Shown here: positions 1 through 13,035 of the stretch, in pieces | How positions within the stretch are numbered: the stretch's first letter is position 1 | Layout of the letters: each line of letters opens with the position of its first letter | IMG/VR virus record: IMGVR_UViG_2690316210_000016 | Coordinates: 1 to 13,035 of that record | Source: a virus | Lineage: Duplodnaviria > Heunggongvirae > Uroviricota > Caudoviricetes | DNA: 13,035 nt | Direction: 5' to 3' (one strand) | Made by a program: the position numbers and the translations under genes | The notes under the pieces: generated by a model | The model's database searches: none | Told to the model about the DNA's origin: nothing | The model's input: the letters and a program-made list of their open reading frames with translations, nothing else

Positions 1-1230
1 ATGAGCAGAGCACTTAACAAACTGAGCGATACACAGCTGAGGAAAATCAACGGCACACCCGCCCAAAAAACAGCTTTTCTTAATGACGGTGGAAACCTGA
101 GCGTCAGGCATTCAACCAGCGGCCTTTTAACCTGGTATTTCACCTACAGGGCCGGAACGGGAAGGGGAGCACGACCGGAACGGATTAAGCTGGGAAATTA
201 TCCTGATCTGAGTCTGAAAGCTGCCAGGGAAAAAGCGGCACAGTGTCGCGCTTGGCTTGCTGAGGGGAAAAATCCACGTCATGAGATGAATTACACCGTA
301 CAGAAAGCGTTAAAGCCCGTAACGGTTGGCGATGCGCTTACCTACTGGCTTGAGTCTTACGTAAAGGAAAACCGCGTGGATTATGCCGCCCTGAAAAAGC
401 GCCTTAATAATCACGTAATACAGCACATTGGTGCTATGCCGCTGGATAAATGCGAGCTACGGCACTGGCTGGCCTGTTTTGACCAGGTGGCAAAGCGAAC
501 GCCTGTTACTGCCGGATTCTTGCTACAGACGTGCAAACAGGCGCTTAAGTTCTGCCGGAGGCGGCGCTATGCAATCAGCAACGTTCTTGATGATATGAGT
601 GTGGCGGACGTTGGGAAAAAACCGGATATAAGCGAGCGTGTCTTAAGCACCAAAGAACTTGGCGAATTATTGCAGGCACTGGACAAAAAAATATTTTCCC
701 CTTACTACGTCGCACTAATCCGCCTCCTGATTGTTTTCGGATGCCGGACGGTAGAACTGAGGTTATCGGAGATCAGCGAGTGGGATTTTACCGAAATGCT
801 CTGGACCGTGCCGAAAGAACACAGCAAAACGAAGGTGGCAATATTCCGGCCCATACCGGAAGCAATACTGCCGTTCGTCACGCAGCTGGTGGAGCAGAAC
901 AGGCACACGGGCTTATTGCTGGGGGAAGTGAAACAGGAAACAAGCGTGTCGCAGTACGGCAGATTAGCGCACAGGAGGCTAAAACACCCTCACTGGTCAC
1001 TGCATGACATCCGGCGCACCTTTACAACGATGCTGAACGATTTAGGCGTGGATCCTCACGTCGTGGAGCAGCTTACAGGTCATCAGATGCCAGGGATGCA
1101 ACGAGTCTATAACCATTCCCGTTATCTGGATGCGAAACGTGACGCGCTGGATATGTGGACGGAGCGGTTAGGGATACTGGCGGGAACACATGAAAACGTA
1201 ACCACATTGCCAATAGCCAGAGAAATATAA
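1..1230 (+). CDS. int: Tyrosine site-specific integrase (phage integrase family), 409 aa
   Basis: Full ORF from ATG at position 1. C-terminal region has the catalytic-domain pattern (HDIRRTF...GHQMPGMQRVYNHSRY, i.e. His/Arg box and a tyrosine near the end). N-terminal part resembles the arm-binding domain of P4-type integrases. Family assignment is from memory, no search run. Confidence 0.88.
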   Translation: MSRALNKLSDTQLRKINGTPAQKTAFLNDGGNLSVRHSTSGLLTWYFTYRAGTGRGARPERIKLGNYPDLSLKAAREKAAQCRAWLAEGKNPRHEMNYTVQKALKPVTVGDALTYWLESYVKENRVDYAALKKRLNNHVIQHIGAMPLDKCELRHWLACFDQVAKRTPVTAGFLLQTCKQALKFCRRRRYAISNVLDDMSVADVGKKPDISERVLSTKELGELLQALDKKIFSPYYVALIRLLIVFGCRTVELRLSEISEWDFTEMLWTVPKEHSKTKVAIFRPIPEAILPFVTQLVEQNRHTGLLLGEVKQETSVSQYGRLAHRRLKHPHWSLHDIRRTFTTMLNDLGVDPHVVEQLTGHQMPGMQRVYNHSRYLDAKRDALDMWTERLGILAGTHENVTTLPIAREI

Positions 1231-1260
1231 TTTTTTTTGCGATTTTTCAGGATGCGGACA

Positions 1261-1315
1261 ACGTGAAACAACGAGACACAACGACGAACAACAAGGAACA
1301 AAATGGAACAACGGG
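1261..1315. repeat. Five tandem ~10-11 bp GAACAAC-type repeats between int and alpA
   Basis: Direct reading: tgaaacaacga / gacacaacgac / gaacaacaag / gaacaaaatg / gaacaacggg, at roughly one helical turn spacing. A second CA-rich repetitive stretch (gacacaatcc gacacaaccc aacccaataatccaccc) lies at about 1513..1565. Confidence 0.4.
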
Positions 1316-1595
1316 TTAAAAATCAGCCATCGTAATAACCATTTGATTTTTATAGGTGTACTGTTTTTTTATACACTGGCGAATCACTCTTAAAAATATG
1401 TAAAAAAGGCGTAAAAGTAAAATTTTATGCCTTTGCATCATAATGAATTAAAAGAGTTTTTATTCTCATTCCCCCTGCTTCTGTAAAACGACCGCCGCCA
1501 GTGTTTGCCATTCCACAAACACCCTGACACAATCCGACACAACCCAACCCAATAATCCACCCAATGACTCTTTAAGAAACAACAAAGGGGGAATT

Positions 1596-1784
1596 GTGTT
1601 AAGCACAGATCGCTTTATACGTGAAAAAGAATGTCAGCAACTTACAGGCCTGAGCCGCTCATGTCGGTACCGCCTGGAAAAAGCCGGACAATTCCCATCA
1701 CGGCGTAAGCTGGGCGGTCGTTCCGTTGGCTGGTCTTTATCCGAAGTTCTGGCATGGAAGGACAGCTGCGAGGCAGTTCACTAA
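1596..1784 (+). CDS. alpA: AlpA-family small DNA-binding regulator / excisionase-like protein, 62 aa
   Basis: GTG start at 1596 preceded by aaaggggg. Translation (FIREKECQQLTGLSRSCRYRLEKAGQFPSRRKLGGRSVGWSLSEVLAWK) matches the AlpA/CP4-57 regulator HTH pattern. Its position just after int is typical of satellites and integrative elements. Confidence 0.8.
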   Translation: MLSTDRFIREKECQQLTGLSRSCRYRLEKAGQFPSRRKLGGRSVGWSLSEVLAWKDSCEAVH

Positions 1785-1836
1785 TCAGGCTGGCGGCACA
1801 CAGCCGCCACCCATCCACTAATACAGAGATCTAACC

Positions 1837-3261
1837 ATGAATACTGGATATTCTCCCGAACAAGGGCGGGGCTTCGTTCGTCCTGAAAAACAGAATCTGC
1901 AAAATTTTGCCGAAATTATTCCGGTTATTTCCGGCCTTACTGGCGGGAGTGAAACCAATATTGTTAACGCCAGAGCGTTGCAGATGTTTGATGATAAAAA
2001 GGGAGTAAATTTAACTTACACCCCTGACGGCAATCAGAATATGAGCATTATCTCTGAGTCAGGTTTCTACAAACTAATAAAAACAAAAAGCGCCCCGTTG
2101 CCGGAGCGCCTTTGTGAACAATTAACCTACTGCGCAAAAAATGAATCTGAGCAGTGGGATTATATCAACCATGTGGAGAAGCGCCACAATTGCCGAATAA
2201 CGGGCAAAACAAAGGCCACCCGCTACGGTGGCCCCTCGACACAAGCTACACGTTATCCCCAACGCATGAGCATTGCCAACAATGCCACATTTGCGGCTGG
2301 TGGGCAATGCAATCAGTCTGGTTCAGTTCGTTGCCATACCTGCAATGAGCGCTTTTCCCTGTACTCTTTAAGGAATTGCTCAAGGGCAAAAGCACATGGC
2401 GCGAATCTTTCTGATTCATGCTCTATCTTTCTGCGCCGTCTTTTCCGTGCCGGTGATAATGTTTTGGTCAATTCTTTATCGGTCATTGTGTTGTCCTGCA
2501 TAGCAATGCGCCGTAATACCTTACACCACGGCGCTGATGGTGATTACTCTGGTTCTTTGGTCTTGCGGCGCTGGAGTTCTTCACGTGCGACAGTGACGAG
2601 CTGCCCGATCTCCTCGGCGGCTTTGATTCCGAGTTTTTCCACCTGCGCCAGTGCATCGAGCGAAGAAACCAGGGGATTTTCTCCACTTCCTTCTGCCTGG
2701 CGCCGGGCGATCTCACCGCGTACAGCCGTAACTATAAAATTCGCTTTAGTTTCCCCTGGCTGTAGGGATGCCTCAATGCCACTCACTACTTCATGTGGAA
2801 ATCTGGCATTCAGTTGCTGTGACTTATTGTTAACAGAACTCCTGGACATGTTTGCACCTCCCATTAATAACGGGATGCAGTGTAATACAAAAGTGAATAC
2901 CAAAAAAGACTTGAAATGGTATTCACCTAAATGTAATGTGAATACCACAAGTGCTGATACATGCAATTCAGCAATTGAAACGACGAAGCCCCGCACTGTT
3001 GGAGCAGTAACGGGGCTTCTAACCACCAACGATAACGAGAGTATCGAGGTAGCTATGAGAAATCATACCACACACCCGCAAGGGCGGGACTCGCACAACC
3101 TGAATAAATACATCTGGCGTTTTATCGCCCTGAGCACTGCACAACCGCGCGTGATTACCATTGAGGCCACCAGCGAACAGGAAGCACGCCAGCAATCCCC
3201 GGCTGGCTGCGTGATGGTATTCGCTGCCCGTATTCGTCAGGAGGTGTGCCATGTGCAATAA
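1837..3261 (+). CDS. Questionable 474-codon ORF; only the first ~90 codons look protein-like (antirepressor / Bro-N-like segment)
   Basis: Residues ~50-85 (MFDDKKGVNLTYTPDGNQNMSIISESGFYKLIKTKSA) resemble the C-terminal half of a Bro-N/antirepressor domain, but the N-terminal half does not match well. From about nt 2150 onward the translation is Cys/Ser/Arg/Thr-rich and looks non-coding. The ORF also runs antisense through a well-supported minus-strand gene (2544..2849) and through a repeat-rich regulatory region. Probably a gene remnant plus a chance open frame. Confidence 0.25.
   Translation: MNTGYSPEQGRGFVRPEKQNLQNFAEIIPVISGLTGGSETNIVNARALQMFDDKKGVNLTYTPDGNQNMSIISESGFYKLIKTKSAPLPERLCEQLTYCAKNESEQWDYINHVEKRHNCRITGKTKATRYGGPSTQATRYPQRMSIANNATFAAGGQCNQSGSVRCHTCNERFSLYSLRNCSRAKAHGANLSDSCSIFLRRLFRAGDNVLVNSLSVIVLSCIAMRRNTLHHGADGDYSGSLVLRRWSSSRATVTSCPISSAALIPSFSTCASASSEETRGFSPLPSAWRRAISPRTAVTIKFALVSPGCRDASMPLTTSCGNLAFSCCDLLLTELLDMFAPPINNGMQCNTKVNTKKDLKWYSPKCNVNTTSADTCNSAIETTKPRTVGAVTGLLTTNDNESIEVAMRNHTTHPQGRDSHNLNKYIWRFIALSTAQPRVITIEATSEQEARQQSPAGCVMVFAARIRQEVCHVQ
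2544..2849 (-). CDS. Hypothetical small protein (102 aa), possible island regulator
   Basis: Minus-strand ATG (complement of cat at 2847..2849) sits 6 nt after a strong Shine-Dalgarno (GGGAGGTG on the minus strand). The longer upstream extension in the ORF track (to 3029) is hydrophobic junk, so the internal start is preferred. It faces away from the replication operon across operator-like repeats. No family recognised. Confidence 0.45.
   Translation of the reverse strand: MSRSSVNNKSQQLNARFPHEVVSGIEASLQPGETKANFIVTAVRGEIARRQAEGSGENPLVSSLDALAQVEKLGIKAAEEIGQLVTVAREELQRRKTKEPE
2881..3019. promoter_or_regulatory. Operator-like repeats (GTGAATACC direct and inverted) and a 9-bp-stem hairpin in the divergent intergenic region
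   Basis: GTGAATACC at 2893..2901 and 2938..2946, its inverse GGTATTCAC at 2918..2926; TGTAAT at 2881 and 2932. Hairpin GAAGCCCCG (2985..2993) / CGGGGCTTC (3011..3019) with no downstream T-tract. Lies between the minus-strand gene and the plus-strand operon starting at 3251. Confidence 0.35.
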
Positions 3262-3475
3262 CACCCGTCCGGACGCAGCCGCCGAAGCCATCATAACGCT
3301 AATGCATGCGCTGATTGATATTTCTGTTATTGCTGACAGGGCGCATAAACACGCAGTCAGAGAATCAGAATGCATCTTCCATTATTTAGCATTTGTGCAG
3401 CTAAAAGCCGATCAGGCACTGGATAAGGCCGGAAAAATTATCATGGCTGATGTGCAGGAGGTGCACCATGCATAA
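3251..3475 (+). CDS. Hypothetical protein, 74 aa
   Basis: ATG at 3251 preceded by AGGAGG (caggaggtgtgccATG). Its stop overlaps the start of the next ORF (atgcataa), indicating translational coupling. Confidence 0.55.
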   Translation: MCNNTRPDAAAEAIITLMHALIDISVIADRAHKHAVRESECIFHYLAFVQLKADQALDKAGKIIMADVQEVHHA

Positions 3476-3833
3476 CCTGTCAATTTCTGACCTTAACAGC
3501 ATTCAGTTTGACGAGAAATTTACCGGGCAGTTGCTGGTCAATGTGGAGAACGGGCGCATAGTGCGTAATTATCACCTGCCGGATGGTGCAATTGCCGGAA
3601 GCGTTGAAGCATTGCTGGAACTGGCGGAACGTGCGCGACTGATTAAGCCGTCAACGAGCCATCACGATGATGATCTGCATTTTACCGGATGTATGGTGAG
3701 TCACTACGAAAACGGCGTCGAGGTATCCTGCGAACGGCTGCGTGATGATTGCTGTTTCGGCACACTGCCGGAATTTATCGAGTTGCTGACCAGTTGCGGT
3801 TATCAGGTCATTCAGGGGGGTAAACATGCGTGA
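3468..3833 (+). CDS. Hypothetical protein, 121 aa
   Basis: ATG at 3468 preceded by AGGAGG (caggaggtgcaccATG). The ORF-track start at 3450 would place the SD inside the coding sequence, so 3468 is preferred. No recognisable domain. Confidence 0.55.
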   Translation: MHNLSISDLNSIQFDEKFTGQLLVNVENGRIVRNYHLPDGAIAGSVEALLELAERARLIKPSTSHHDDDLHFTGCMVSHYENGVEVSCERLRDDCCFGTLPEFIELLTSCGYQVIQGGKHA

Positions 3834-4059
3834 TGATCGTTTTAATTCCCTGAAACAGGAATTTTCCGGCGTTCCTGATGATGCGGCTGATGCGCTTTCG
3901 TCAATGCCAGAACTTATTAGAGCGGCTTTTTTCTTACTTTCCACGAGAGAATATAAATCAACGGGGCTTGATGTACTGAATATCGCCGCCGATTATGCGG
4001 AATATGTGGCAGAGGCGCGTTACAGAAGAAAATTTCCTGAGGATGTAAGCCATGCGTGA
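3826..4059 (+). CDS. Hypothetical protein, 77 aa
   Basis: ATG at 3826 after a GGGGGG run; start overlaps the previous stop. Acidic small protein, no family recognised. Confidence 0.5.
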   Translation: MRDDRFNSLKQEFSGVPDDAADALSSMPELIRAAFFLLSTREYKSTGLDVLNIAADYAEYVAEARYRRKFPEDVSHA

Positions 4060-4285
4060 TATTTACCACGAAACAATAGACCGCGCATTTCTTGCACTTT
4101 CTCACAGTGAAAACATGCTGGAAATATTGCGCATATGGCTTGAAACACTTGGCGACAATGAACGCGACAAACAAAAATCAAGAATTGCCACGGCATTAAT
4201 AACGCTTCTTGAGCCTGTAATAATGGAACTGCAAGAAATAGATCTATTGCACGACAGATATAAAGAACAGCACACCGGAGAATAA
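4052..4285 (+). CDS. Hypothetical protein, 77 aa
   Basis: ATG at 4052 after GAGGA; overlaps the previous stop. No family recognised. Confidence 0.5.
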   Translation: MRDIYHETIDRAFLALSHSENMLEILRIWLETLGDNERDKQKSRIATALITLLEPVIMELQEIDLLHDRYKEQHTGE

Positions 4286-4290
4286 AAATA

Positions 4291-4590
4291 ATGAAACTTA
4301 AATATTCTGGCTTAACTGCCAGTGGCAACACTCACCCTAAATTTACGCGCGGTGATATTTACCGCGACCAGTACGGCGGCACGGTAATGATTAAGGGCGT
4401 GGAAGAACGGCGTGTAACCTACCGCCGTGAAGGTTACGAATATGATTGCGTGATGCCTGTTTATCAGTTCCGGCGTGATTTTTCTCTGGTGCAGACCGCG
4501 CCGCATAACGTGCCCACCAGCAACGCCAGGGCACGGGCAAACATCCAGAAGCTGAAAACCATGATTAACGGATTCAGGGGTAAAAAATGA
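4291..4590 (+). CDS. Hypothetical protein, 99 aa
   Basis: ATG at 4291 after GGAGA; its stop overlaps the primase start (ATGA). No family recognised. Confidence 0.5.
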   Translation: MKLKYSGLTASGNTHPKFTRGDIYRDQYGGTVMIKGVEERRVTYRREGYEYDCVMPVYQFRRDFSLVQTAPHNVPTSNARARANIQKLKTMINGFRGKK

Positions 4591-6341
4591 AACTGGCACC
4601 GAACGTAAAACAGCAGTCACGCGGCATAAAACACAAAGGAACAGAAGTCATTATTTTTGCGGGTAGTGATGCCTGGGCACACGCGAAACAATGGCAGGAA
4701 CATGATGCGCGTATGGCCGGAGATAATGAGCCTCCTGTGTGGCTTGGGGAGCAGCAGTTATCAGAACTGGATAAGCTGCAAATTGTGCCGGAAGGCAGAA
4801 AATCCGTGCGCATATTCAGGGCCGGATATCTTGCGCCAGTAATGATAAAGGCGATTGGCCAGAAGCTGGCGGCGGCAGGCGTACAGGATGCAAATTTTTA
4901 CCCTGATGGTATGCACGGTCAGAAGGTGGAGAACTGGCGCGAATATCTGGCCCGTGAGCGCCAGAATCTTTCTGATGGTCTGGTCATTGAGCTTCCGGTA
5001 AAGCAAAAGGCGCAACTTTCGCAGATGGCGGACAGTGAGCGCGCGCAGCTGCTTGCCGATCGCTTTGATGGCGTTTGCGTACATCCTGAAAGTGAAATCG
5101 TTCACGTATGGCGCGGCGGGGTATGGTGTCCGGTCAGCACAATGGAACTTAGCCGCGAAATGGTGGCGATCTATTCAGAGCACAGGGCCACTTTCAGCAA
5201 GCGCGTAATCAATAACGCCGTGGAAGCGTTAAAAGTTATTGCCGAACCAATGGGCGAGCCGTCCGGCGATTTGCTGCCGTTCGCCAATGGTGCGCTTGAC
5301 CTGAAAACGGGGGAATTTTCCCCGCACACGCCGGAGAACTGGATCACCACGCACAACGGCATTGAGTACACGCCACCAGCACCCGGGGAGAACATCCGCG
5401 ATAACGCGCCAAACTTTCATAAATGGCTTGAGCACGCAGCCGGAAAAGACCCGCGCAAGATGATGCGTATATGTGCCGCGCTGTACATGATTATGGCGAA
5501 CCGGTACGACTGGCAGATGTTTATTGAGGCCACCGGAGACGGCGGGAGCGGTAAAAGTACATTCACACACATAGCCAGCCTTCTGGCAGGGAAACAAAAC
5601 ACGGTAAGCGCTGAAATGACATCGCTTGATGATGCTGGTGGGCGTGCGCAGGTTGTCGAGAGTCGTCTTATCGTCCTGGCTGACCAGCCGAAATATACAG
5701 GCGAAGGAACGGGCATCAAGAAAATCACGGGCGGCGACCCCGTGGAAATTAACCCGAAATATGAAAAGCGTTTCACGGCGGTAATCAGGGCGGTGGTGCT
5801 GGCGACCAACAACAACCCGATGATATTCACCGAACGGGCCGGAGGTGTGGCACGTCGTCGCGTGATTTTCCGTTTCGACAATATCGTCAGTGAGGCCGAA
5901 AAAGACAGGGAGCTACCGGAAAAGATTGCGGCTGAAATCCCTGTGATTATCCGCCGATTGCTGGCGAACTTTTCCGACCCTGAAAAGGCACGGGCTTTAC
6001 TCATTGAACAGCGTGACGGTGATGAAGCACTGGCGATAAAGCAGCAAACGGATCCGGTTATTGAGTTTTGCCAGTTCCTGAATTTTCTGGAGGAAGCGCG
6101 CGGCCTGATGATGGGTGGCGGTGGCGATTCAGTGAAGTACACGACCAGGAACAGCCTTTACCGCGTCTATCTGGCGTTTATGGCATACGCAGGCAGGAGC
6201 AAACCGCTAAACGTAAATGACTTTGGCAAGGCTATGAAGCCTGCCGCAAAAGTTTACGGACATGAATATATTACGCGGAAAGTTAAGGGGGTAACGCAGA
6301 CTAACGCAATAACAACAGACGAGTGCGACGCGTTTTTATAA
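4587..6341 (+). CDS. Replication initiator: P4-type primase C-terminal / SF3 helicase (D5-like NTPase) protein, 584 aa
   Basis: Walker A P-loop EATGDGGSGKSTF (nt ~5534..5557) followed by a Walker-B-like hydrophobic stretch ending in D (RLIVLADQ). Overall resemblance to the P4-alpha / PICI pri-rep NTPase domain, and an iteron array lies directly downstream. Family from memory, no search run. Confidence 0.82.
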   Translation: MKLAPNVKQQSRGIKHKGTEVIIFAGSDAWAHAKQWQEHDARMAGDNEPPVWLGEQQLSELDKLQIVPEGRKSVRIFRAGYLAPVMIKAIGQKLAAAGVQDANFYPDGMHGQKVENWREYLARERQNLSDGLVIELPVKQKAQLSQMADSERAQLLADRFDGVCVHPESEIVHVWRGGVWCPVSTMELSREMVAIYSEHRATFSKRVINNAVEALKVIAEPMGEPSGDLLPFANGALDLKTGEFSPHTPENWITTHNGIEYTPPAPGENIRDNAPNFHKWLEHAAGKDPRKMMRICAALYMIMANRYDWQMFIEATGDGGSGKSTFTHIASLLAGKQNTVSAEMTSLDDAGGRAQVVESRLIVLADQPKYTGEGTGIKKITGGDPVEINPKYEKRFTAVIRAVVLATNNNPMIFTERAGGVARRRVIFRFDNIVSEAEKDRELPEKIAAEIPVIIRRLLANFSDPEKARALLIEQRDGDEALAIKQQTDPVIEFCQFLNFLEEARGLMMGGGGDSVKYTTRNSLYRVYLAFMAYAGRSKPLNVNDFGKAMKPAAKVYGHEYITRKVKGVTQTNAITTDECDAFL

Positions 6342-6356
6342 TTTTTTGTAATTGCT

Positions 6357-6580
6357 GTCTACCCTGTCTACCTGAGTAAAGAAAAATACATTTAATTCAG
6401 TGCATTAAGTTAGGTAGATAGCCTTTTTTTACTGTCTACCCACTATCTACCCTCTCTACCTGATTTTACCTGAATCAGACAGGGAGGTAGACACGGGGTA
6501 GATAGTGGATAAAAGCACTCTACCCCGCTGAAATCCGCGCCATTACTGGCATGAGGGCCACTAAGGTAGATAAGGTAGAC
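6357..6580. repeat. Iteron array, putative replication origin
   Basis: About 11 copies of the heptamer GTCTACC / GGTAGA(C/T) within 225 bp. Mostly GTCTACC-type in the left cluster (6357, 6366, 6434, 6445, 6454) and GGTAGAC/T-type in the right cluster (6486, 6497, 6565, 6574), with one GGTAGAT at 6413 and one CTCTACC at 6518. An AT-rich stretch (6374..6412) lies inside the left cluster. Confidence 0.7.
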
Positions 6581-6629
6581 AAGGGGAGGCACAACTCAAA
6601 ACTTTTTAAACGAGGGGGTAAAAATAAAT

Positions 6630-6908
6630 ATGCACACTTCAGGGAAATTTAATAAATCACTCAAAAAACGCAGAGACAGAACAGAACCGAAATATCGCGC
6701 GTTAGACATGACAGAGCACGCTTTAAAGGTGGCAATCAGAACGATAGACCGACACGTAGGGGAAGGATACGCGAAGGAACATCCCGACCTGATAAGCGCA
6801 TTCATGACCACAGCAGCGGCAAACTTTGCCACGCTGACAGAACGGGAGATTGCCGAAGCGGAACAGGTAACAACCATCAACGTTAAAACCGGAGAGGTGG
6901 AATCATGA
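6630..6908 (+). CDS. Hypothetical protein, 92 aa
   Basis: ATG at 6630 preceded by GAGGGGG; its stop overlaps the start of the SSB-like gene (ATGA). No family recognised. Confidence 0.5.
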   Translation: MHTSGKFNKSLKKRRDRTEPKYRALDMTEHALKVAIRTIDRHVGEGYAKEHPDLISAFMTTAAANFATLTEREIAEAEQVTTINVKTGEVES

Positions 6909-7315
6909 CAGCACAGATAGCAGCTTACGGGCGGCTGGTGGACGACCCGCAGGTAAAACAGACCAGCAAGGGCACACCAATGACGCTGGCACGTATGGCG
7001 GTATCGTTGCCATGTAGTCAGGCGCAGGATGGGCAGGCTACGTTATGGCTATCGGTGATGGCATTTGGTAAGCAGGCCGACTTCCTGGCTAAACATCAAA
7101 AAGGCGACGTTGCCAGCGTATCCGGCACGATGCAGGTCAGCCAGTGGACCGGACAGAACGGGGAAACGCGGCAGGGTTATCAGGTTATTGCAGACAGCGT
7201 AATCAGTGCCCGTGCGGCACGTCCTGGCGGGAACAGACGCAAAACCACAGGCACACAGGGTAATCAGCCACCAGCGGGAGGCGATGACCCTTACGGTGAT
7301 GATATTCCGTTCTGA
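6905..7315 (+). CDS. ssb: Single-stranded DNA-binding protein homolog (short, 136 aa)
   Basis: OB-fold-like N-terminal region, a Gly/Pro/Gln-rich linker, and a C-terminal acidic tip GDDIPF that corresponds to the conserved DDDIPF tail of bacterial SSB. Confidence 0.78.
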   Translation: MTAQIAAYGRLVDDPQVKQTSKGTPMTLARMAVSLPCSQAQDGQATLWLSVMAFGKQADFLAKHQKGDVASVSGTMQVSQWTGQNGETRQGYQVIADSVISARAARPGGNRRKTTGTQGNQPPAGGDDPYGDDIPF

Positions 7316-7325
7316 GGGGGTGAGG

Positions 7326-7574
7326 ATGGTACATGACCGCATAGCGGAGGAACTCGAGGCAAAAGGCTTTTACCGGAGGGCGGCGGCACGATGGGGTGAA
7401 GTCATGCAACTGGTGGAGACAGACAAGGAACGGCATCAGGTTACGATGCGACGGCTGGAATGTTCCAGGAAGGCACAGAGGCCACCGGAGCCGCCAACGG
7501 AGAACTATGCAGACCTGAGAAATGCAGTAAATCGCACTTACGCAGACATGGGGCTGAGCAAATTAGCAGAGTAG
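7326..7574 (+). CDS. PerC/Pch-family-like small transcriptional activator, 82 aa
   Basis: ATG at 7326 after GGGGG, in frame with the ORF-track entry 7206..7574, whose upstream part overlaps ssb and is probably not translated. The motif IAEELEAKGFYRRAAARWGEVM resembles the conserved N-terminal motif of PerC/Pch regulators as I recall it. Confidence 0.5.
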   Translation: MVHDRIAEELEAKGFYRRAAARWGEVMQLVETDKERHQVTMRRLECSRKAQRPPEPPTENYADLRNAVNRTYADMGLSKLAE

Positions 7575-7597
7575 GAATACCAGAACCACACCACACA

Positions 7598-7619
7598 GCC
7601 GGAGCAATCCGGCTTTTTT
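7598..7619 (+). terminator. Rho-independent terminator
   Basis: GCCGGA-GCAA-TCCGGC hairpin followed by TTTTTT. Confidence 0.6.
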
Positions 7620-7631
7620 GCGCCCAAAAAA

Positions 7632-7668
7632 AGCCCGATAAGGTCAGAGGTGGCTTATCGGGCTTTTG
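7632..7668. terminator. Second hairpin terminator, probably bidirectional
   Basis: Perfect 11-bp stem AGCCCGATAAG / CTTATCGGGCT with an 11-nt loop, flanked by an A-run upstream and TTTT downstream. Confidence 0.6.
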
Positions 7669-7744
7669 CATATGAGGTTTTTTGGTGCACTGACACACAT
7701 GATCGGGATAATCATTTCATAATTTGCAACGCAACTCAATATCA

Positions 7745-7797
7745 TTGCACAAAATGCAATCATGATTATAATCATAACTGGATGAACATCCAGTTAT
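7745..7797 (+). promoter_or_regulatory. Sigma70-type promoter of the capsid module overlapped by two perfect palindromic operators
   Basis: TTGCAC (7745..7750), 16-bp spacer, TATAAT (7767..7772). Perfect 14-bp palindrome ATGATTATAATCAT (7762..7775) overlaps the -10. Perfect 24-bp palindrome ATAACTGGATG-AA-CATCCAGTTAT (7774..7797) covers the predicted transcription start. Confidence 0.55.
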
Positions 7798-7828
7798 GAT
7801 TTTTTAAGTCAAAGAGGAATTTCTTACT

Positions 7829-8035
7829 ATGGCTGAAGAGAAAAAAGGCGGTGTTTCGGTGTACATAAGCCCCGACATCGTGAAGGCGCTCAAGGAACGC
7901 CACCAGCAGAACGTAAAAGCAGGCATTGCGGCAGGACTTGATCCGCTGGCGATGGTTGAGCCGTCAACAGGCTGGCAGGTACGCGCCTATTTACGCGCGG
8001 CGCTGGGTATGAATCAGGTTCACGGGGGTGAATAA
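7829..8035 (+). CDS. Hypothetical protein, 68 aa, first gene of the capsid module
   Basis: ATG at 7829 after AAGAGGA; stop overlaps the capsid gene start (TAATG). No family recognised. Confidence 0.55.
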   Translation: MAEEKKGGVSVYISPDIVKALKERHQQNVKAGIAAGLDPLAMVEPSTGWQVRAYLRAALGMNQVHGGE

Positions 8036-9090
8036 TGACAGTAAAAGCAATGGCACTTAACACTAACCAGCTTTTTGCGTACCTGAATCGCGGGGATATT
8101 GCGGAATTTAAATTCAGTCCGCTGTTTACCACGCTGTTTTTCCCGAACGTGGCGACATTCAGCACGCAAAACATCATGCTGGATACCCTGGACATTGAAG
8201 AAGTCACCATGTCGGCGTTTTGTTCGCCTATGGTGGGTAGCCAGGTTCAGCGCGATAAAGGGTACGAAACCAGCACGATTAAACCTGGCTACATGAAGCC
8301 AAAGCACGAAATCGATCCAACGAAAACCATCATGCGCATGGCTGGAGAAGATCCGGCACAGCTTAACGACCCTACCTATCGCCGTATGCGCCTGATTACT
8401 GGCAATATGCGCCGCCAGATAAACGCCATAAAAGCGCGCGTGGAATGGCTGGCGGTAAATGCGGTAACGACCGGAAAAAACATCATTGAAGGCGAAGGCA
8501 TAGAGCGCTATGAAATCGACTGGAAGATACCGGAAAAAAACATCATAGAGCAGGCCGACGGGAAAAAATGGTCAGAGCAGGACAAAGAAACCCACGATCC
8601 AATCTATGATATCGAACTATACGCCGATCAGGCTGGTTGCCCCGCAAACGTCATGATTATGGGCGCTGAGGTATGGCGAACGTTACGCAGCTTTAAAAAA
8701 TTCCGTGAGCTGTACGATCTTTCCCGTGGTTCAGAGTCCGCCGCAGAGCTGGCCTGTAAAAACCTGGGCGAAGTGGTGAGCTTTAAAGGCTATCTGGGCG
8801 ATATTGCCCTTATCGTCTATTCCGGCAAATACACTGACAGCGACGGCACAGAAAAATATTTCCTTGAGCCTGATTTGCTTGTCCTGGGCAACACCAACAA
8901 TAAAGGGCTGGTGGCCTATGGTGCGATTATGGATCAGGACGCAGTAAGAACGGGCGCAACGCAAAACATGTTTTACCCGAAAAACTGGATTGAGGACGGC
9001 GATCCGGCGATTGAGTACGTGCAGACGCACAGCGCACCGCAGCCGGTTCCGGCAGATATTCGCAAATTTGTTACCGTCAAAATTGGTTAA
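8035..9090 (+). CDS. Major capsid protein, lambda gpE-like (HK97 fold family), 351 aa
   Basis: Multiple blocks match lambda gpE as recalled: KPGYMKPKHEIDP vs TPGYVKPKHEVNP; DPTYRRMRLITGNMR vs DPAYRRRRIIMQNMR; VSFKGYLGDIALIVYSGKY vs VSYKGMYGDVAIVVYSGQY; LLVLGNTNNKGLVAYGAIMDQDA vs TMVLGNTQARGLRTYGCIQDADA; YPKNWIEDGDPAIEY vs YPKNWVTTGDPAREF. Length is similar to gpE (341 aa). Confidence 0.9.
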   Translation: MTVKAMALNTNQLFAYLNRGDIAEFKFSPLFTTLFFPNVATFSTQNIMLDTLDIEEVTMSAFCSPMVGSQVQRDKGYETSTIKPGYMKPKHEIDPTKTIMRMAGEDPAQLNDPTYRRMRLITGNMRRQINAIKARVEWLAVNAVTTGKNIIEGEGIERYEIDWKIPEKNIIEQADGKKWSEQDKETHDPIYDIELYADQAGCPANVMIMGAEVWRTLRSFKKFRELYDLSRGSESAAELACKNLGEVVSFKGYLGDIALIVYSGKYTDSDGTEKYFLEPDLLVLGNTNNKGLVAYGAIMDQDAVRTGATQNMFYPKNWIEDGDPAIEYVQTHSAPQPVPADIRKFVTVKIG

Positions 9091-9101
9091 CGGGGGATTC
9101 T

Positions 9102-9437
9102 ATGGACACTCCATACATTGAGTTATTTGCAGGCAGTCAGCAGGTCGCCACGACGCTGGTACATTTTGCCGCTGATGCTGGCGTTATTCAGGAATTTACC
9201 CCGCTGATGCTGGCGGACAATGGCGAGTTTAAGCCGTGGGATGGTAAGGAATCTGGCAAGGCTGTTTATCTGACCTCGTACCCTGTGGACACGTCAAAGC
9301 AGAAATCAGCACAGTGTTACAAGACGGGGATATTCAATATTGCCGCCGTTAACTGGCCTGAGAGCGTCGACACCGATGCGAAAAAATGCGCCGCCTTTGC
9401 GGGTTCCGGCGTATCCGTTCAGCCGCTGGCCCGATAA
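9102..9437 (+). CDS. Head decoration protein, lambda gpD-like, 111 aa
   Basis: Matches lambda gpD (110 aa) as recalled: TPLMLADNGEFKPWDG vs TPLMLDTSSRKLVAWDG; CYKTGIFNIAAVNWPESVDTDAKKCAAFAGSGVSV vs [35 protein letters not shown]. Preceded by GGGGGAT. Confidence 0.85.
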   Translation: MDTPYIELFAGSQQVATTLVHFAADAGVIQEFTPLMLADNGEFKPWDGKESGKAVYLTSYPVDTSKQKSAQCYKTGIFNIAAVNWPESVDTDAKKCAAFAGSGVSVQPLAR

Positions 9438-9449
9438 GCAGGGGGAACG

Positions 9450-9863
9450 ATGGCAACGAATGAAAGCATCATGACGCTACCGCTGGCGAGTAAATTTAAA
9501 GCCGAAGCGCGGGCAATGGCTGACAGAGGTTTATCAACCTATGAGGCCGTATATCAACTAAACAAACTGGAAGAGCAGGACAAGCCGCGCGCTGATGCGA
9601 TTATGGCGCTTCATGAGCATAAAGACTATCAGCCGCTGTTGCGTGCAATGGCAAACGTGCCTTGTATCGATGTTGGTACGGCTAAAAGCATCCTTAGCAT
9701 GACCATAGAGCAGGAACGTCCGAAGGTTGCGCCGGAACTTACCGCAGCCTTTGAAAACTTTATGGACATGCACAGCCCGCAAGCCGTATCAGCTGGCATG
9801 GCATACGATGGCAGAAACCAGGGCGATGACGGCGACATCGATCGCATACTGAAAACCATCTGA
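9450..9863 (+). CDS. Hypothetical protein, 137 aa, last gene of the capsid module
   Basis: ATG at 9450 after AGCAGGGGGAAC. No similarity to lambda FI/FII that I can recognise. Confidence 0.55.
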   Translation: MATNESIMTLPLASKFKAEARAMADRGLSTYEAVYQLNKLEEQDKPRADAIMALHEHKDYQPLLRAMANVPCIDVGTAKSILSMTIEQERPKVAPELTAAFENFMDMHSPQAVSAGMAYDGRNQGDDGDIDRILKTI

Positions 9864-9869
9864 GACAAG

Positions 9870-9891
9870 GCCGGAGAAATCCGGCTTTTTT
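9870..9891 (+). terminator. Rho-independent terminator
   Basis: GCCGGA-GAAA-TCCGGC hairpin followed by TTTTTT; nearly identical to the terminator at 7598..7619. Confidence 0.6.
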
Positions 9892-9892
9892 A

Positions 9893-9957
9893 CGGGTCCT
9901 TCCTGGAATTATGGCCCGTTACGGGGCGGCGACCTCGCGGGTTTTCGCTATTTATGA
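9893..9957 (+). other. cos site copy A: lambda-type cosQ-cosN junction with only the first ~22 bp of cosB
   Basis: Contains GTTACG-GGGCGGCGACCT-CGCGGGTTTTCGCTATTTATGA, matching the lambda end junction (12-nt cohesive end GGGCGGCGACCT at 9924..9935, recalled from the lambda genome). The preceding CGGGTCCTTCCTGG resembles the lambda right end ACGGGTCCTTTCCGG. No R-type repeats follow before the Nu1-like gene. Confidence 0.8.
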
Positions 9958-10024
9958 CGTTTTCCCGTGAAGGTGACACCACCACCACTTGATTAATATT
10001 TAACCATGCAGTTAAGGTAACATT

Positions 10025-10459
10025 ATGATTGATAAAGCTTGTTTTGTAAGTCAGCAGGAAATAGCTGAACATTTCAAGGTTAACAGAACCACTATTCGCG
10101 CATGGACCAAACAGGGGATGCCGTATCTTAATGCGGATCGCGGAAAGTCTGGCGGTTATCACATCGGGCATACATTGCTTTGGTCTTCAGGTAAAAGCCG
10201 TCTTGAGGCCATCAGATATCACGTAGAAACCAGTGCGCTGGAAAAAATTATGTTTGCCAGGCTGCTTTCATCTGAGCGTGACGAGTACTCCAGTGAAGAA
10301 ACAGAACATCGATTTGATGAAGGTTTGCAGATTTACGGCTATTCACCGGAAGATGTGAGCAAGGCACGAAATAAAATGGCTGGCTTTCTGGCTGGGTGGC
10401 GTCATGCCGTAAGCGTTCGCCGTGCCAGCATGGAGCAATCAGCCGATACAGAACAGTAA
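10025..10459 (+). CDS. Small terminase subunit homolog (lambda gpNu1-like N-terminal winged-HTH domain), 144 aa
   Basis: VSQQEIAEHFKVNRTTIRAWTKQGMPYLNADRGKSGG aligns with lambda Nu1 VNKKQLADIFGASIRTIQNWQEQGMPVLRGGGKGN. Shorter than Nu1 (181 aa), and the C-terminal half is unrelated. No large terminase subunit gene is present in the window. Confidence 0.72.
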   Translation: MIDKACFVSQQEIAEHFKVNRTTIRAWTKQGMPYLNADRGKSGGYHIGHTLLWSSGKSRLEAIRYHVETSALEKIMFARLLSSERDEYSSEETEHRFDEGLQIYGYSPEDVSKARNKMAGFLAGWRHAVSVRRASMEQSADTEQ

Positions 10460-10527
10460 AGCCGATAACTTGTTAATCACTCGCAGCAATGCATGTGATT
10501 TGTGCACACTTTCGGTTAACTGGTTCG

Positions 10528-10705
10528 ATGTCCGGTTTTAGTGTCTGTTTTTTGCGCATGTCCGGTTCATGGAAAGCATGTTTTTATATTTTTCATATGG
10601 TTAACTTGCAGAGAAACCGGACATGGATCCCGAAAAATTTTCATAAATAGTGAAAACGCGCGAGGTCGCCGCCCCGTAACGGGCCATAATTCCAGGAAGG
10701 ACCCG
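10528..10705 (-). other. cos site copy B (inverted): cosQ-cosN plus a complete cosB-like region with three R-like repeats and an AT-rich tract
   Basis: Read on the minus strand: cosQ-like at 10675..10705, cosN (AGGTCGCCGCCC on plus) at 10663..10674, then TATTTATGAAAATTTTCGGG, matching lambda TATTTATGAAAATTTTCCGG. R-like decamers ATGTCCGGTT at 10528..10537 and 10558..10567 and the inverse AACCGGACAT at 10615..10624, with an AT-rich tract at 10570..10612. This mirrors the lambda cosN-R3-I1-R2-R1 layout but with a different repeat sequence. Confidence 0.75.
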
Positions 10706-10738
10706 ACGACACCAGACTATCAGAACGATGGGGGCACA

Positions 10739-11020
10739 ATGACAGAAGCCGAAATACTGCGATTAATCCGCCGCGTTGCCGGAATCAGCCAGCAGGCCGA
10801 CGAACAGACCACGCAGCCGGACAGCGTGACCGCCGAAAATTATGTTCGTGTGGTTGCTGAGATGATTCGCCGTAATGGTATCCAGCTTAATGATGTGGAT
10901 ATGCGCAACATACGGATCCGCGTTCTTGAAATGCTGGCCTACAATCGCCGCGTGGCACTGTATCGGGAAACGGAGAAAATTACGTACCACTGGAAGAAGC
11001 CGGAGCGGTTGCGGCGGTAA
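10739..11020 (+). CDS. Hypothetical protein, 94 aa, distal to cos
   Basis: Start chosen at ATG 10739 (GGGGG upstream). The ORF-track start at 10541 would translate through cos copy B. No family recognised. Confidence 0.45.
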   Translation: MTEAEILRLIRRVAGISQQADEQTTQPDSVTAENYVRVVAEMIRRNGIQLNDVDMRNIRIRVLEMLAYNRRVALYRETEKITYHWKKPERLRR

Positions 11021-11070
11021 CTGGTTGATATTTTCGAAATTCGCCAGCGGCGAACATCGGGGAAACCAGC

Positions 11071-11187
11071 CTAACCCGTTGATATTTTCGGGAACCTCAA
11101 ATTGAGGAGGTCGGAAACATAACCCGTCATATTCTGGATGCTGATAATTACCACGCAGCCCATTAAGGCCTAACCCGTTGATTCTTC
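11071..11187. repeat. Three direct repeats of TAACCCGT(T/C)(G/A)AT at ~48-bp spacing
   Basis: ctaacccgttgatattttcg (11071), cataacccgtcatattctgg (11119), cctaacccgttgattcttcc (11168); also ttgatattttcg at 11024. Confidence 0.4.
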
Positions 11188-11193
11188 CACAAT

Positions 11194-11356
11194 CCCCCAT
11201 TGGGGGAGGCTGGGCGGCCTGCTGTGGGCTTTTCCACCATTGGTGGAAAGGCGCACATCTGGATCATCATTACGGTGATCAAGGGTATGTAAAACCCACC
11301 AGCCTGATTGACATTTAACCGGAAAAAAGCCAGGTAGCCCCATTATGGGGATCCCC
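11194..11356. repeat. Cluster of GC-rich palindromes with a CCATTGG-type core
   Basis: CCCCCA-T-TGGGGG (11194..11206), TTTCCACCA-T-TGGTGGAAA (11231..11249), CCCCAT-T-ATGGGG (11338..11350) overlapping GGGGATCCCC (11347..11356). Confidence 0.4.
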
Positions 11357-11574
11357 ATATCGACATTAACGCCCCTCATGAATTGGCGCGCTTCCCCCTG
11401 GAAAGATGACCCGCCTGTATATTTCTTGTGTCTATTTGTTCCACGTTGTTTCATACAGTGCAACGATCGGTGTAGTTAATGGTGTAGTCAATTTGCGATT
11501 TTTAGCACTTTTTGCAGTGCAAATCATTTAATTAAATCAATGACTTGCCTTGATGTAGTGATAAAAGGACATAT

Positions 11575-13035
11575 TTATTCATCTTTCGGCGCAGAATGCT
11601 GGCGACCAAAAATCACCTCCATCCGCGCACCGCCCAGCATGCTCTCTCCGGCGACGATTTTACCCTCATATTGCTCGGTGATTTCGCGGGCTACCGCCAG
11701 CCCTACACCTTGCCCAGGGCGTAAAGTATCAACCCGTTGACCACGGTCGAAAATGACCTCTCGCTTGCTTAATGGAATACCGGGGCCATCATCCTCGACC
11801 ACAATATAGAGATGCTCGTCGGTTTGCCTTGCAGAAATTTCGACAAACTCGAGGCAATATTTACAGGCATTATCCAGCACGTTGCCCATCACCTCGACAA
11901 AATCGTTCTGCTCACCGACAAAGCTGATCTCTGGCGAAATATCGAGAGAGATATTGACCCCTTTGCGTTGATACACTTTGTTCAGCGCTGAGGTGAGATT
12001 GTCCAGCAGTGGGGCGACCGGATGCAGCTCGCGGCTGAGCAATGTCCCGCCGCGCATACTGGCACGATGCAGGTAGTAGCCAATTTGCTGTGAAATGCGG
12101 CTGATTTGCTCCAGCATTACCGGCTCAGCATCACTGACGCTCATCTTTTCACTACGCAGAGAACGCAGCGTACTTTGCAGCACCGCCAGTGGCGTTTTCA
12201 GACTATGGGTCAGGTCGGTGAGCGTCGTACGGTATTTGTCGTAACGTTCGCGTTCACTTTTTAACAATCGGTTCAGGTTTCGTACCAGACTGGTCAGTTC
12301 TCGCGTTGTGGCTGGATTGAGCAATTCGCGGTTATGTTCTTCCAGTTCGCGGACTTCTTTTGCCAGGGCTTCGATGGGGCGTAAACTCCACCAGGCGGCG
12401 ACCCACAGCAGCGGGATCACTAACAGCAGATTGGCTGAGAGCACATAGATAAACCAGCTCCAGACCATATAGGAACTTTTTAGCTCCACCGGAATGGTAT
12501 CCACCACCACAATGGTTAATTTTGGCATCCGCGATGTTGCCGGGTAGACGTTTACTGCCACCGAGTGGGTCATCTCCGCGTCGTCATCATCTTCCCGCAC
12601 TTCCTGCAACTGTTGCTGTATCGAATGATCTCCACTCAGCAAGAGGCTGGTATCGTTAACATCCGCTTCAATTTCATGAAAACCATTCGATTTCAGCCAG
12701 TCAGGCTGGATCATCTTCATCAGCCAGGGCACGTCACGTTGCGCCCATAAAAGCTGCCCGTTCTCATCATAAATTAGCGTCATGGTGGGGCTTTGCTTGT
12801 CGATATTTTCGGGTAACTCGACATGCAACTTATTGTTTTCCCACTTCGCAAGGGTATAGAACAGATTGCTCTCGCCACGTAACAGCCGAAACGTAGTTTT
12901 ATCGAAACTGACGCTATAACCGATCAGCGCGACCATTCCGTAGGCAAGCGAAAGCACCAGTACTACCGCAGCCGTTGCCAACAGAAAACGTACCCGCAGC
13001 GAGAGCGGGAAAAAAAGACGCAGTAATTTTTTCAT
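11575..13035 (-). CDS. phoQ: Sensor histidine kinase PhoQ, 486 aa, complete
   Basis: Translation matches E. coli PhoQ as recalled, including the periplasmic acidic patch EDDDDAE, the H-box HSLKTPL and the C-terminal ATP-binding domain. The start codon is the last three bases of the window. Confidence 0.93.

Follow-up and report, generated by a model that had tools for sequence, protein, structure and literature searches.

The phage-inducible chromosomal island (PICI) EcCICFT073 carries two different cos sites, cos1 and cos2, and the authors who described the action of its redirecting phage packaging protein A (RppA) left open why there are two (PMC6092414; PMC6739421). The same arrangement is found in the DNA analysed here, positions 1 to 13,035 of the IMG/VR virus record IMGVR_UViG_2690316210_000016 (13,035 nt, called the window below), where cos2 (10528-10674, minus strand) bears three copies of the decamer ATGTCCGGTT in the region in which lambda has its R elements. 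A preliminary description of the window regarded these repeats as island-specific sites recognised by the Nu1-like protein encoded beside them. The comparison with phages, prophages, and related islands leads to another answer: to judge from the alignments, cos2 duplicates the cos native to a widespread lambdoid prophage class, and it probably allows a second class of helper to package the island independently of Rpp. While cos2 itself has already been published, what is new is the recognition that its cosB is native to phages of a specificity class not described before, together with a testable account of the two cos sites.

Published properties of cos1 and cos2

By its overall similarity, the window is an EcCICFT073-type PICI lying between roxA and phoQ, with 97.4% identity to EcCICFT073 from position 3826 to its end. 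It has two cosN, at 9924-9935 (+) and 10663-10674 (-); the former marks the published cos1, and the decamer region, by sequence identity and genomic position, is the published cos2. It equals the EcCICFT073 cos2 of Fig S1A of PMC6739421 (the cosN region was also compared with Fig S5 of PMC6092414), its match to CFT073 over 10520-10632 (113 nt) is 100%, and the location downstream of rppA as well as the roxA-phoQ integration site agree. The 144-aa protein encoded at 10025-10459 (+), convergent with cos2, is RppA: it is 100% identical to CFT073 RppA, has the same N-terminus as RppA in Fig S1 of PMC6739421, and matches the RppC crystal structure 6hlk with E = 5e-31.

Transfer of EcCICFT073 mediated by lambda or phi80 needs cos1, deletion of cos2 raises lambda-mediated transfer, and deletion of both cos1 and cos2 abolishes transfer (Fillol-Salom et al. 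2018 ISME J, PMC6092414). From the loss of transfer on double deletion it follows that cos2 is cleavable. RppA stimulates the transfer of cos1 plasmids, and when cosB segments were swapped, the only constructs transferred with RppA were those with the cosB of cos1 (Fillol-Salom et al. 2019 Mol Cell, PMC6739421, Fig 6B). According to this published genetics, cos2 can be cleaved by a lambda-type terminase and is not a target of RppA-TerS (TerS being the small terminase subunit), so that rppA is the partner of cos1 and not of cos2. In the same papers, the cosB of cos2 was called 'completely divergent', and no R elements were reported in either cos (PMC6092414; PMC6739421).

Architecture of cos2

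Exact copies of ATGTCCGGTT occur in the window three times, at 10528-10537 (+), 10558-10567 (+), and 10615-10624 (-), and the only other near-match, with 1 mismatch, lies at 620; a 10-mer with at least three copies inside 150 bp was found in 0 of 300 first-order Markov simulations of the window. The 12-nt cohesive end GGGCGGCGACCT at 10663-10674 is identical to bp 1-12 of lambda (NC_001416), and because it lies on the minus strand, the whole cos site runs right to left. When cos coordinates are counted with the first cosN base as base 1, 42 of the 46 positions at the start are identical to lambda, and of the following 14 (bp 47-60) only 1 matches. The preliminary description was right about three decamers, two direct and one inverted, and about the lambda-like start of the site, which is however longer than the cosN and ~20 bp that it had allowed.

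In lambdoid phages the canonical order is R3-I1-R2-R1, with R2 opposite to R3 and R1 in the same orientation as R3 (PMC9026076). The R cores of lambda lie at bp 53 (forward), 114 (inverted), and 155 (forward), and those of phage 21 at 54 (R3), 112 (R2, inverted), and 154 (third R, forward). The decamers of cos2 stand at bp 51-60 (forward), 108-117 (inverted), and 138-147 (inverted). An R3 equivalent about 50-65 bp from the cohesive end (ATGTCCGGTT, 10615-10624, minus strand) and an inverted R2 equivalent about 55-60 bp further on (AACCGGACAT, 10558-10567, minus strand) are thus present, 57 bp apart from start to start. The third decamer (again AACCGGACAT on the minus strand, 10528-10537), which is the last element in common with the phage cos, is oriented like R2, whereas R1 of both lambda and 21 is oriented like R3. 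Accordingly, of the lambda-like R3-I1-R2-R1 layout proposed in the preliminary description, the inverted pair resembling R3 and R2, placed as in lambda and 21 with a putative IHF-type site between its members, stands, and the R1 does not.

The putative I1 equivalent is the IHF-like core TAACCATATGAAA at bp 72-84 (10591-10603, minus strand), followed by an A/T-rich tract to ~10581. It matches the IHF core in 7 of 9 positions and is therefore a candidate for an IHF-type I1 site between R3 and R2; TAACTTAATGTTT of lambda, in the I1 position at bp 74-86 between R3 and R2, is the same in score, strand, and position. An I2-type IHF-like site, TATGAAAATTTTT, also 7/9, is retained at bp 30-42 (10633-10645, minus strand), in the same position as in lambda and in phage 21, whose I2 is annotated in M81255. 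Upstream of cosN in the cos orientation, at a distance of ~20 bp, there is a cosQ-like element, TCGTCGGGTCCTTCC (10695-10709, minus strand), with CGGGTCCTTCC inside it at 10695-10705; the lambda cosQ core is CGGGTCCTT(T)CC, cosQ being defined as in Fig S1A of PMC6739421 and Fig S5 of PMC6092414. Taken together, cos2 is a complete packaging site of the lambda type, with the order cosQ, cosN, I2, R3, putative I1, R2, third R. A TerS gene is missing directly after the island cosB, where the 3' end of rppA comes next, on the opposite strand.

Compared with the lambda cosB (R3-I1-R2-R1; gpNu1, IHF), cos2 thus has an identical cosN, a conserved I2, and inverted R3 and R2 at near-equal distances from cosN. 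It differs in having ATGTCCGGTT instead of the CGTTTCC-type R sequence, a third copy that is R2-oriented and only 30 bp from R2, no TerS gene behind it, and a cognate TerS whose N-terminal domain, according to Pfam, is not Nu1-like (see below). The cosB of phage 21, with R boxes around CATGTCGG (M81255), and that of the CFT073 prophage phi4 share this architecture, their R3 and R2 cores being ~58 bp apart. In phage 21 the R core, CATGTC-GG, resembles the decamer in CATGTCCGG and differs from it by one extra base and in the flanks, and the 21-type TerS, unlike the cognate TerS of cos2, has a full-length Nu1 domain.

A scan of 9800-11600 for promoters and terminators gave nothing above chance in the cos2 region, where one weak terminator-like hairpin overlaps R3, and a transcriptional role for the region was rejected on this ground. 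The open reading frames 10489-10650 (+) and 10541-11020 (+), which run over cos2, were treated as spurious, as was a 'hypothetical protein' annotated across the corresponding phage sequence; the real gene downstream of cos2 starts at 10739.

Phage origin of the cos2 cosB

A search of 50,697 phage genomes showed that PhiR12_1 and four sibling records match cos2 well past cosN. In the pairwise alignment with the PhiR12_1 cos, the identity from cosN to the third decamer is ~99% (4 differences in ~147 bp), and the homology between island and phage stops directly after the third decamer. In PhiR12_1 this sequence lies between the lysis genes and the genes for Nu1/TerS, gpA, W, and portal, which is the canonical position of cos. 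The same arrangement, with the same TerS of the WP_000235436 type (referred to as class A), is found in E. coli prophages, and both in the phage and in the prophage copies TerS starts ~50 bp after the last repeat. Among 80 IMG/VR contigs encoding a TerS of this type, the first decamer is located at +50 from cosN in 77 and the second, at +107, in 73 of these, all three decamers being exact (+50, +107, +137) in 50. Since the decamers stand upstream of a common prophage TerS, the repeats are not island-specific.

The class is widespread: in 5426 complete E. coli genomes, the 5' region of the class-A TerS gene was matched in 1166 and the 113-nt cosB in 226 (at megablast sensitivity), with rppA matched in 97. 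Among isolated phages, the class-A TerS and cos were found in the PhiR12 records only, and literature searches for PhiR12, its accession numbers, and the decamer sequence yielded no relevant result. On these alignments, cos2 reproduces the native cos of a lambdoid prophage class that is widespread and uncharacterised, with PhiR12_1 as its only isolated example.

The cosQ-cosN arms of cos1 (9893-9970) and cos2 (10628-10705), which include the cosQ-like element, form a 78-nt inverted repeat, 90% complementary, with rppA in between, and this repeat could permit inversion of the rppA segment. As the left arm of cos2, from cosQ to cosN, is island-type and the right arm is phage-type, cos2 is a chimera joined at or near cosN. 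In the phage and prophage copies (L001 ~6150-6180; L003, L004), the third decamer is directly followed by ATGACCGGTT in the opposite orientation, and the two make up a near-palindrome, AACCGGACATGACCGGTT, located about where lambda has R1; most of it has been lost from the island copy.

Probable recognition of the decamers by the class-A TerS

The class-A TerS is a protein of 169 aa with a divergent N-terminal helix-turn-helix (HTH) and a Nu1-like C-terminal domain. The Pfam family Phage_Nu1 covers residues 49-150 only, as compared with a match from residue 1 in gp1 of phage 21, and since the match begins at residue 49, the N-terminal domain of the class-A TerS must be different. In lambda Nu1 it is the N-terminal domain that holds the DNA-binding winged HTH.

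To compare repeats with proteins, full-length TerS relatives at 60-80% identity were aligned and the DNA upstream of their genes was taken, which gave a set of 11 loci representing five genera (E. coli, Salmonella, Citrobacter, Enterobacter, and Klebsiella). Here cosN and the spacers diverge strongly, and the inverted decamer pair is always 57 bp from start to start, with an IHF-type core between the two repeats that scores 9/9 in four loci (TAACCAATTGATT, TAACATATTGATT, TAACCTGTTGATT) and 8/9 in others; the R3 decamer keeps the same offset in the Salmonella, Citrobacter, and Enterobacter relatives. Both repeat arms change together, in step with the predicted recognition helix of TerS. Five loci have a helix ...(D/E)RQLRRLQK with Arg20 and the repeat pair ATGTCCGGTT / AACCGGACAT, and the remaining six have helices with Asp or Asn at position 20 (RRLRD, RWLRD, RQLRN, RRVRD, RQFRN; pattern ...R(R/W/Q)(L/V/F)R(D/N)LQK) and the pair A(T/C)TTCCGGTT / AACCGGAA(A/G)T, so that Arg20 goes with G at repeat position 3. 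The Arg20 group holds the relatives farthest from PhiR12 (~61% identity), and a Klebsiella protein with 80% identity falls into the Asp/Asn20 group; because membership crosses the identity ranks in this way, the correlation between helix and repeat is not a simple reflection of overall relatedness.

Conservation within E. coli follows the same elements. Over 19 distinct prophage cos variants, the number of variable columns is 0/10 in R3, 2/10 in R2, 6/10 in the third copy, and 18/20 in the spacer after R2. The E. coli, E. kobei, and Klebsiella loci have the third repeat, and those of Salmonella and Citrobacter lack it. By this comparison, the core that is conserved is R3-I1-R2, with the third repeat as a facultative addition. 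From the invariant spacing and the co-variation, we infer that the decamers are the R sites of the class-A TerS and are bound by its DNA-binding domain. The AlphaFold model of this TerS (pLDDT 70.5, with ~80 in the confidently modelled N-terminal HTH; pTM 0.34) gave a weak Foldseek list headed by winged HTH domains of the MerR or excisionase type and including lambda TerS (6hn7_B), a resemblance of the modelled N-terminal domain to a winged HTH that is suggestive only.

cos1 and the Rpp pathway

The two cos sites of the island have the cosQ-cosN arm in common, and both offer a nicking site compatible with lambda. In other respects they are unlike. cos1 (9893-10025, plus strand, cosN at 9924-9935) is the Rpp-dependent, RppA-responsive site; it lies upstream of rpp on the same strand, the rpp start being near its bp 102, whereas cos2 lies downstream of rppA and is convergent with it. 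Instead of an R2/R1 pair, cos1 has a single proposed R3, ACCACCACCAC. This R3-PICI was placed at bp 48-65 of cos1 by Murialdo & Feiss 2022 (PMC9026076), with bp 55-63 identical among PICIs and with cos2 unmentioned. The motif is absent from 10528-10674; it is found in cos1 at 9976-9988 (bp 53-65; ACACCACCACCAC) and in all RppA islands examined. At the R3 position of cos1 it is followed by an IHF-like TTGATTAA at 9989-9996, and both are conserved throughout the RppA islands and recur with slight changes beside an Rpp relative of 70% identity (L107), an arrangement that fits the R3-PICI proposal. A similarity between RppA and the class-A TerS was also considered as a sign of shared specificity and was rejected, being a marginal HTH alignment of 31 residues with E = 0.05.

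A second-cos slot and a sibling phage class

Among the RppA-like islands of IMG/VR that retain the region (n = 24), a conserved cos1 (ACACCACCACCAC, bp 53-65) is found upstream of rpp in all. Downstream of rpp, on the other strand, ~10 have a decamer-type cos and ~9 have another one, composed of GGTTGTTGT at ~bp 50, ACAACAACC at ~109, and GGTTGTTGT at ~187, with an 8/9 IHF core, as read by eye. This alternative second cos (in L093-L095, L097, L098, and L100-L103, at ~1690-1870, minus strand) has the canonical forward-inverted-forward order. Searches of deposited phage and E. coli genomes at megablast sensitivity found it in islands only, as did an exact-pattern scan; a less strict pattern, with an upstream cosN as the filter, located it in phage-sized contigs as well (L209 1081-1320, L166, L165). 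There it lies directly upstream of a gene for a 168-aa TerS (L209 1309-1812), a full-length member of Phage_Nu1. The TerS of this second class (class B) and the class-A TerS have the C-terminal ~100 residues in common, with the last ~80 near-identical, and unrelated N-terminal domains. As with the decamer type, the similarity between island and phage has clear limits: it begins at cosQ, continues for a few bases beyond the last R site, and stops there.

Going by these sequences, the two sibling phage classes, previously undescribed, differ by a swap of cosB together with the DNA-binding domain of TerS. Since sibling islands carry the cos of one class or of the other, they provide independent evidence of a pairing in specificity between the repeats and the N-terminal domain of TerS, and show that islands capture whole functional cos units. 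It may be generalised that Rpp-type PICIs hold a modular second-cos slot capturing the whole helper cos, from cosQ to the last R, with at least two cassettes (the ATGTCCGGTT type and the GGTTGTTGT type) whose TerS proteins share a TerL-binding C-terminus (TerL being the large terminase subunit); Rpp redirection at cos1 would then be combined with direct mimicry at cos2 for those TerS classes that may be beyond the reach of Rpp, which would account for the presence of two cos sites. We regard this wider scheme as a serious possibility that falls a little short of being probable.

Two further observations concern the variety of these sites. In the cos2 of L099 (~1850), the R3-I1 half is like common prophage variants, including ATGTCCGGCT, and the R2-R1 half is island-type, a mosaic that suggests recombination between island and prophage cos sites. 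In the RppB-like islands L104-L106, whose Rpp is 83-84% identical, a lambda-type cosN was not found within 1.2 kb either side of rpp when up to 7 errors were allowed over a 34-nt pattern of cosN plus flank, and these islands may have another cos or another arrangement.

A probable second packaging route

We consider it probable that cos2 is a captured native phage cos through which the island is packaged, independently of Rpp, by a second class of helper. By analogy with lambda, a dimer of the DNA-binding domain of the class-A TerS would sit on the inverted R3 and R2 decamers across an IHF bend at I1, and the bound TerS would anchor TerL, which would nick the adjacent cosN. Packaging of the island concatemer would then start at cos2 and proceed leftward through rppA toward int, carried out by the unmodified terminase of a class-A helper, and this route would work without RppA. 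cos1 and RppA, in turn, would serve helpers with a lambda-, phi80-, or 21-type TerS, the last of these reportedly being hijacked by Rpp (PMC9026076), so that two cos sites would mean two routes for two helper classes. Given that cos2 is costly with lambda, where its deletion raises transfer, it may well be kept for a benefit elsewhere. A comparable strategy is known from the cos-type Staphylococcus aureus pathogenicity islands (SaPIs), such as SaPIbov5, which carry the helper's own cos and are packaged by the unmodified helper terminase (as cited in PMC6092414). The SaPIs are Gram-positive elements relying on an HNH-dependent terminase, whereas the island considered here would join the native-cos route with Rpp redirection.

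Several observations weigh against this account. The 11 TerS loci are few and phylogenetically non-independent, and their co-variation amounts essentially to two repeat types; the Foldseek comparison of the TerS model with the PDB produced no match with E < 0.5. In the window itself, the IHF core scores no more than 7/9, the third decamer points the 'wrong' way for a canonical R1, and the fourth half-site, which in prophages is the R3-oriented ATGACCGGTT, is degenerate. A point change in the cosN of cos2 (GGGCGACGACCT) occurs in two islands, L086 and L088 (~1854, minus strand), and could mean relaxed constraint. Moreover, the genome of CFT073 has this cosB at one place, the island copy, and its resident helper phi4 has a phage-21-type cosB, so that cos2 does not match the helper of its own strain. 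With the phi4 mismatch, the cosN changes, the degenerate half-site, and a still putative role of class-A helpers, the possibility of a neutral relic keeps appreciable weight.

Alternative explanations

Stated fully, such a relic would be a functionless scar of recombination, or of cohesive-end joining, with a class-A phage, carried along by hitch-hiking. The dispensability of cos2 and its slightly harmful effect on lambda- and phi80-mediated transfer would be expected of a scar, as would the altered cosN of some islands and the decay of the fourth half-site, and the island-type left arm in common with cos1 is consistent with a recombination product. A scar, however, would not be expected to span an entire cos unit whose two boundaries coincide with functional edges, and to do so in each of two independent cassettes, nor to keep ~99-100% identity to the phage version across many islands. 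The island/prophage mosaic in L099 suggests continuing exchange, cos2 alone gives residual transfer and is hence cleavable, and an element that costs lambda transfer should be lost if it never paid. On balance, we find the scar rather unlikely.

Less likely still is an interference decoy, in which cos2 would titrate the class-A terminase or provoke unproductive cutting, thereby lowering the yield of the helper. PICIs generally interfere with helper packaging, and a replicating island would offer many copies of a perfect phage cosB; however, terminase would be expected not only to bind but also to package a replicating concatemer that bears a complete cos, which makes decoy and transfer functions hard to separate.

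The weakest explanation, that the decamers are island-specific and are read by RppA, alone or paired with the helper TerS, so as to redirect the helper terminase to cos2, is suggested by the Nu1-like winged-HTH domain of RppA, by the combination of a lambda cosN with a cosB different from that of lambda, and by the mechanism proposed for cos1, which is exactly of this kind, but it is very improbable given that the published cosB swaps and the cos2 deletion, made with an identical protein and site, largely refute it in vivo for the lambda helper, that the decamers precede the TerS gene in most prophages with that TerS and co-vary with it, that the RppA recognition helix NRTTIRAWTK is unrelated to TDRQLRRLQK of the class-A TerS, and that the motif conserved along with Rpp (in RppA islands, RppB-like islands, and the 70% relative) is ACCACCACCAC in cos1. 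Of the views expressed in the preliminary description, the island specificity of the repeats therefore has to be given up, the same cosB being found ahead of the TerS-TerL-portal operon of PhiR12_1 and of E. coli prophages, and with it their recognition by the island Nu1-like protein. The redirection logic is real, but it belongs to the other site, cos1, from 9924 onward. The idea that the repeats determine specificity has, on the other hand, gained comparative support from their invariant spacing and from their co-variation with the TerS helix.

Other features of the island

Apart from the packaging region, the window includes genes for an integrase (1-1230), a D5/P4-type primase (4587-6341), and SSB (6905-7315), and, at 8035-9437, genes for lambda E-like capsid and D-like decoration proteins. 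The capsid protein has 351 aa and belongs to PF03864 (E = 2e-52); the further head genes of the segment 8035-9863 encode the D-like decoration protein of 111 aa and a 137-aa protein resembling the C-terminal part of a head protease/scaffold (phrog_53). These genes contrast with the description of EcCICFT073 as lacking capsid morphogenesis genes and being packaged in phage-sized capsids (PMC6092414).

Three sets of repeats have also been noticed. A triple repeat of GTGAATACCA at 2893 (+), 2917 (-), and 2938 (+), within a 474-aa open reading frame (1837-3261), belongs to a segment (~2575-3012) for which the CFT073 island has no equivalent, and might be an operator or an iteron-like site (2893-2947). 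A tandem array of the 10-nt unit ACAACGAGAA, with 4.4 copies, adjoins the integrase gene (1258-1301), and the 12-nt unit GGTGTAGTCAAT is present in 2 tandem copies at the right island end (11458-11493). As the right end matches the sequence beside int in CFT073, both tandem arrays are probably att or arm-type sites.

Implications

Recognised as a faithful copy of a phage cosB, cos2 turns the question of the two cos sites into a concrete hypothesis, for which an isolated phage, PhiR12, exists. The correlation at residue 20 predicts that the exchange R20D/N in the class-A TerS would shift its preference to ATTTCCGGTT. The two TerS classes represent a natural swap of the DNA-binding domain, and this swap, like the correlation of Arg20 with G at repeat position 3, is useful for work on terminase specificity and for the engineering of cosmid or PICI delivery vehicles. 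If Rpp cannot bind the class-A or class-B TerS, the need for a native cos copy would be explained. Finally, if the proposed route is true, the helper range of this island family of uropathogenic E. coli would exceed the lambda/phi80/21 group and would take in a TerS class that is present in about one fifth of complete E. coli genomes.

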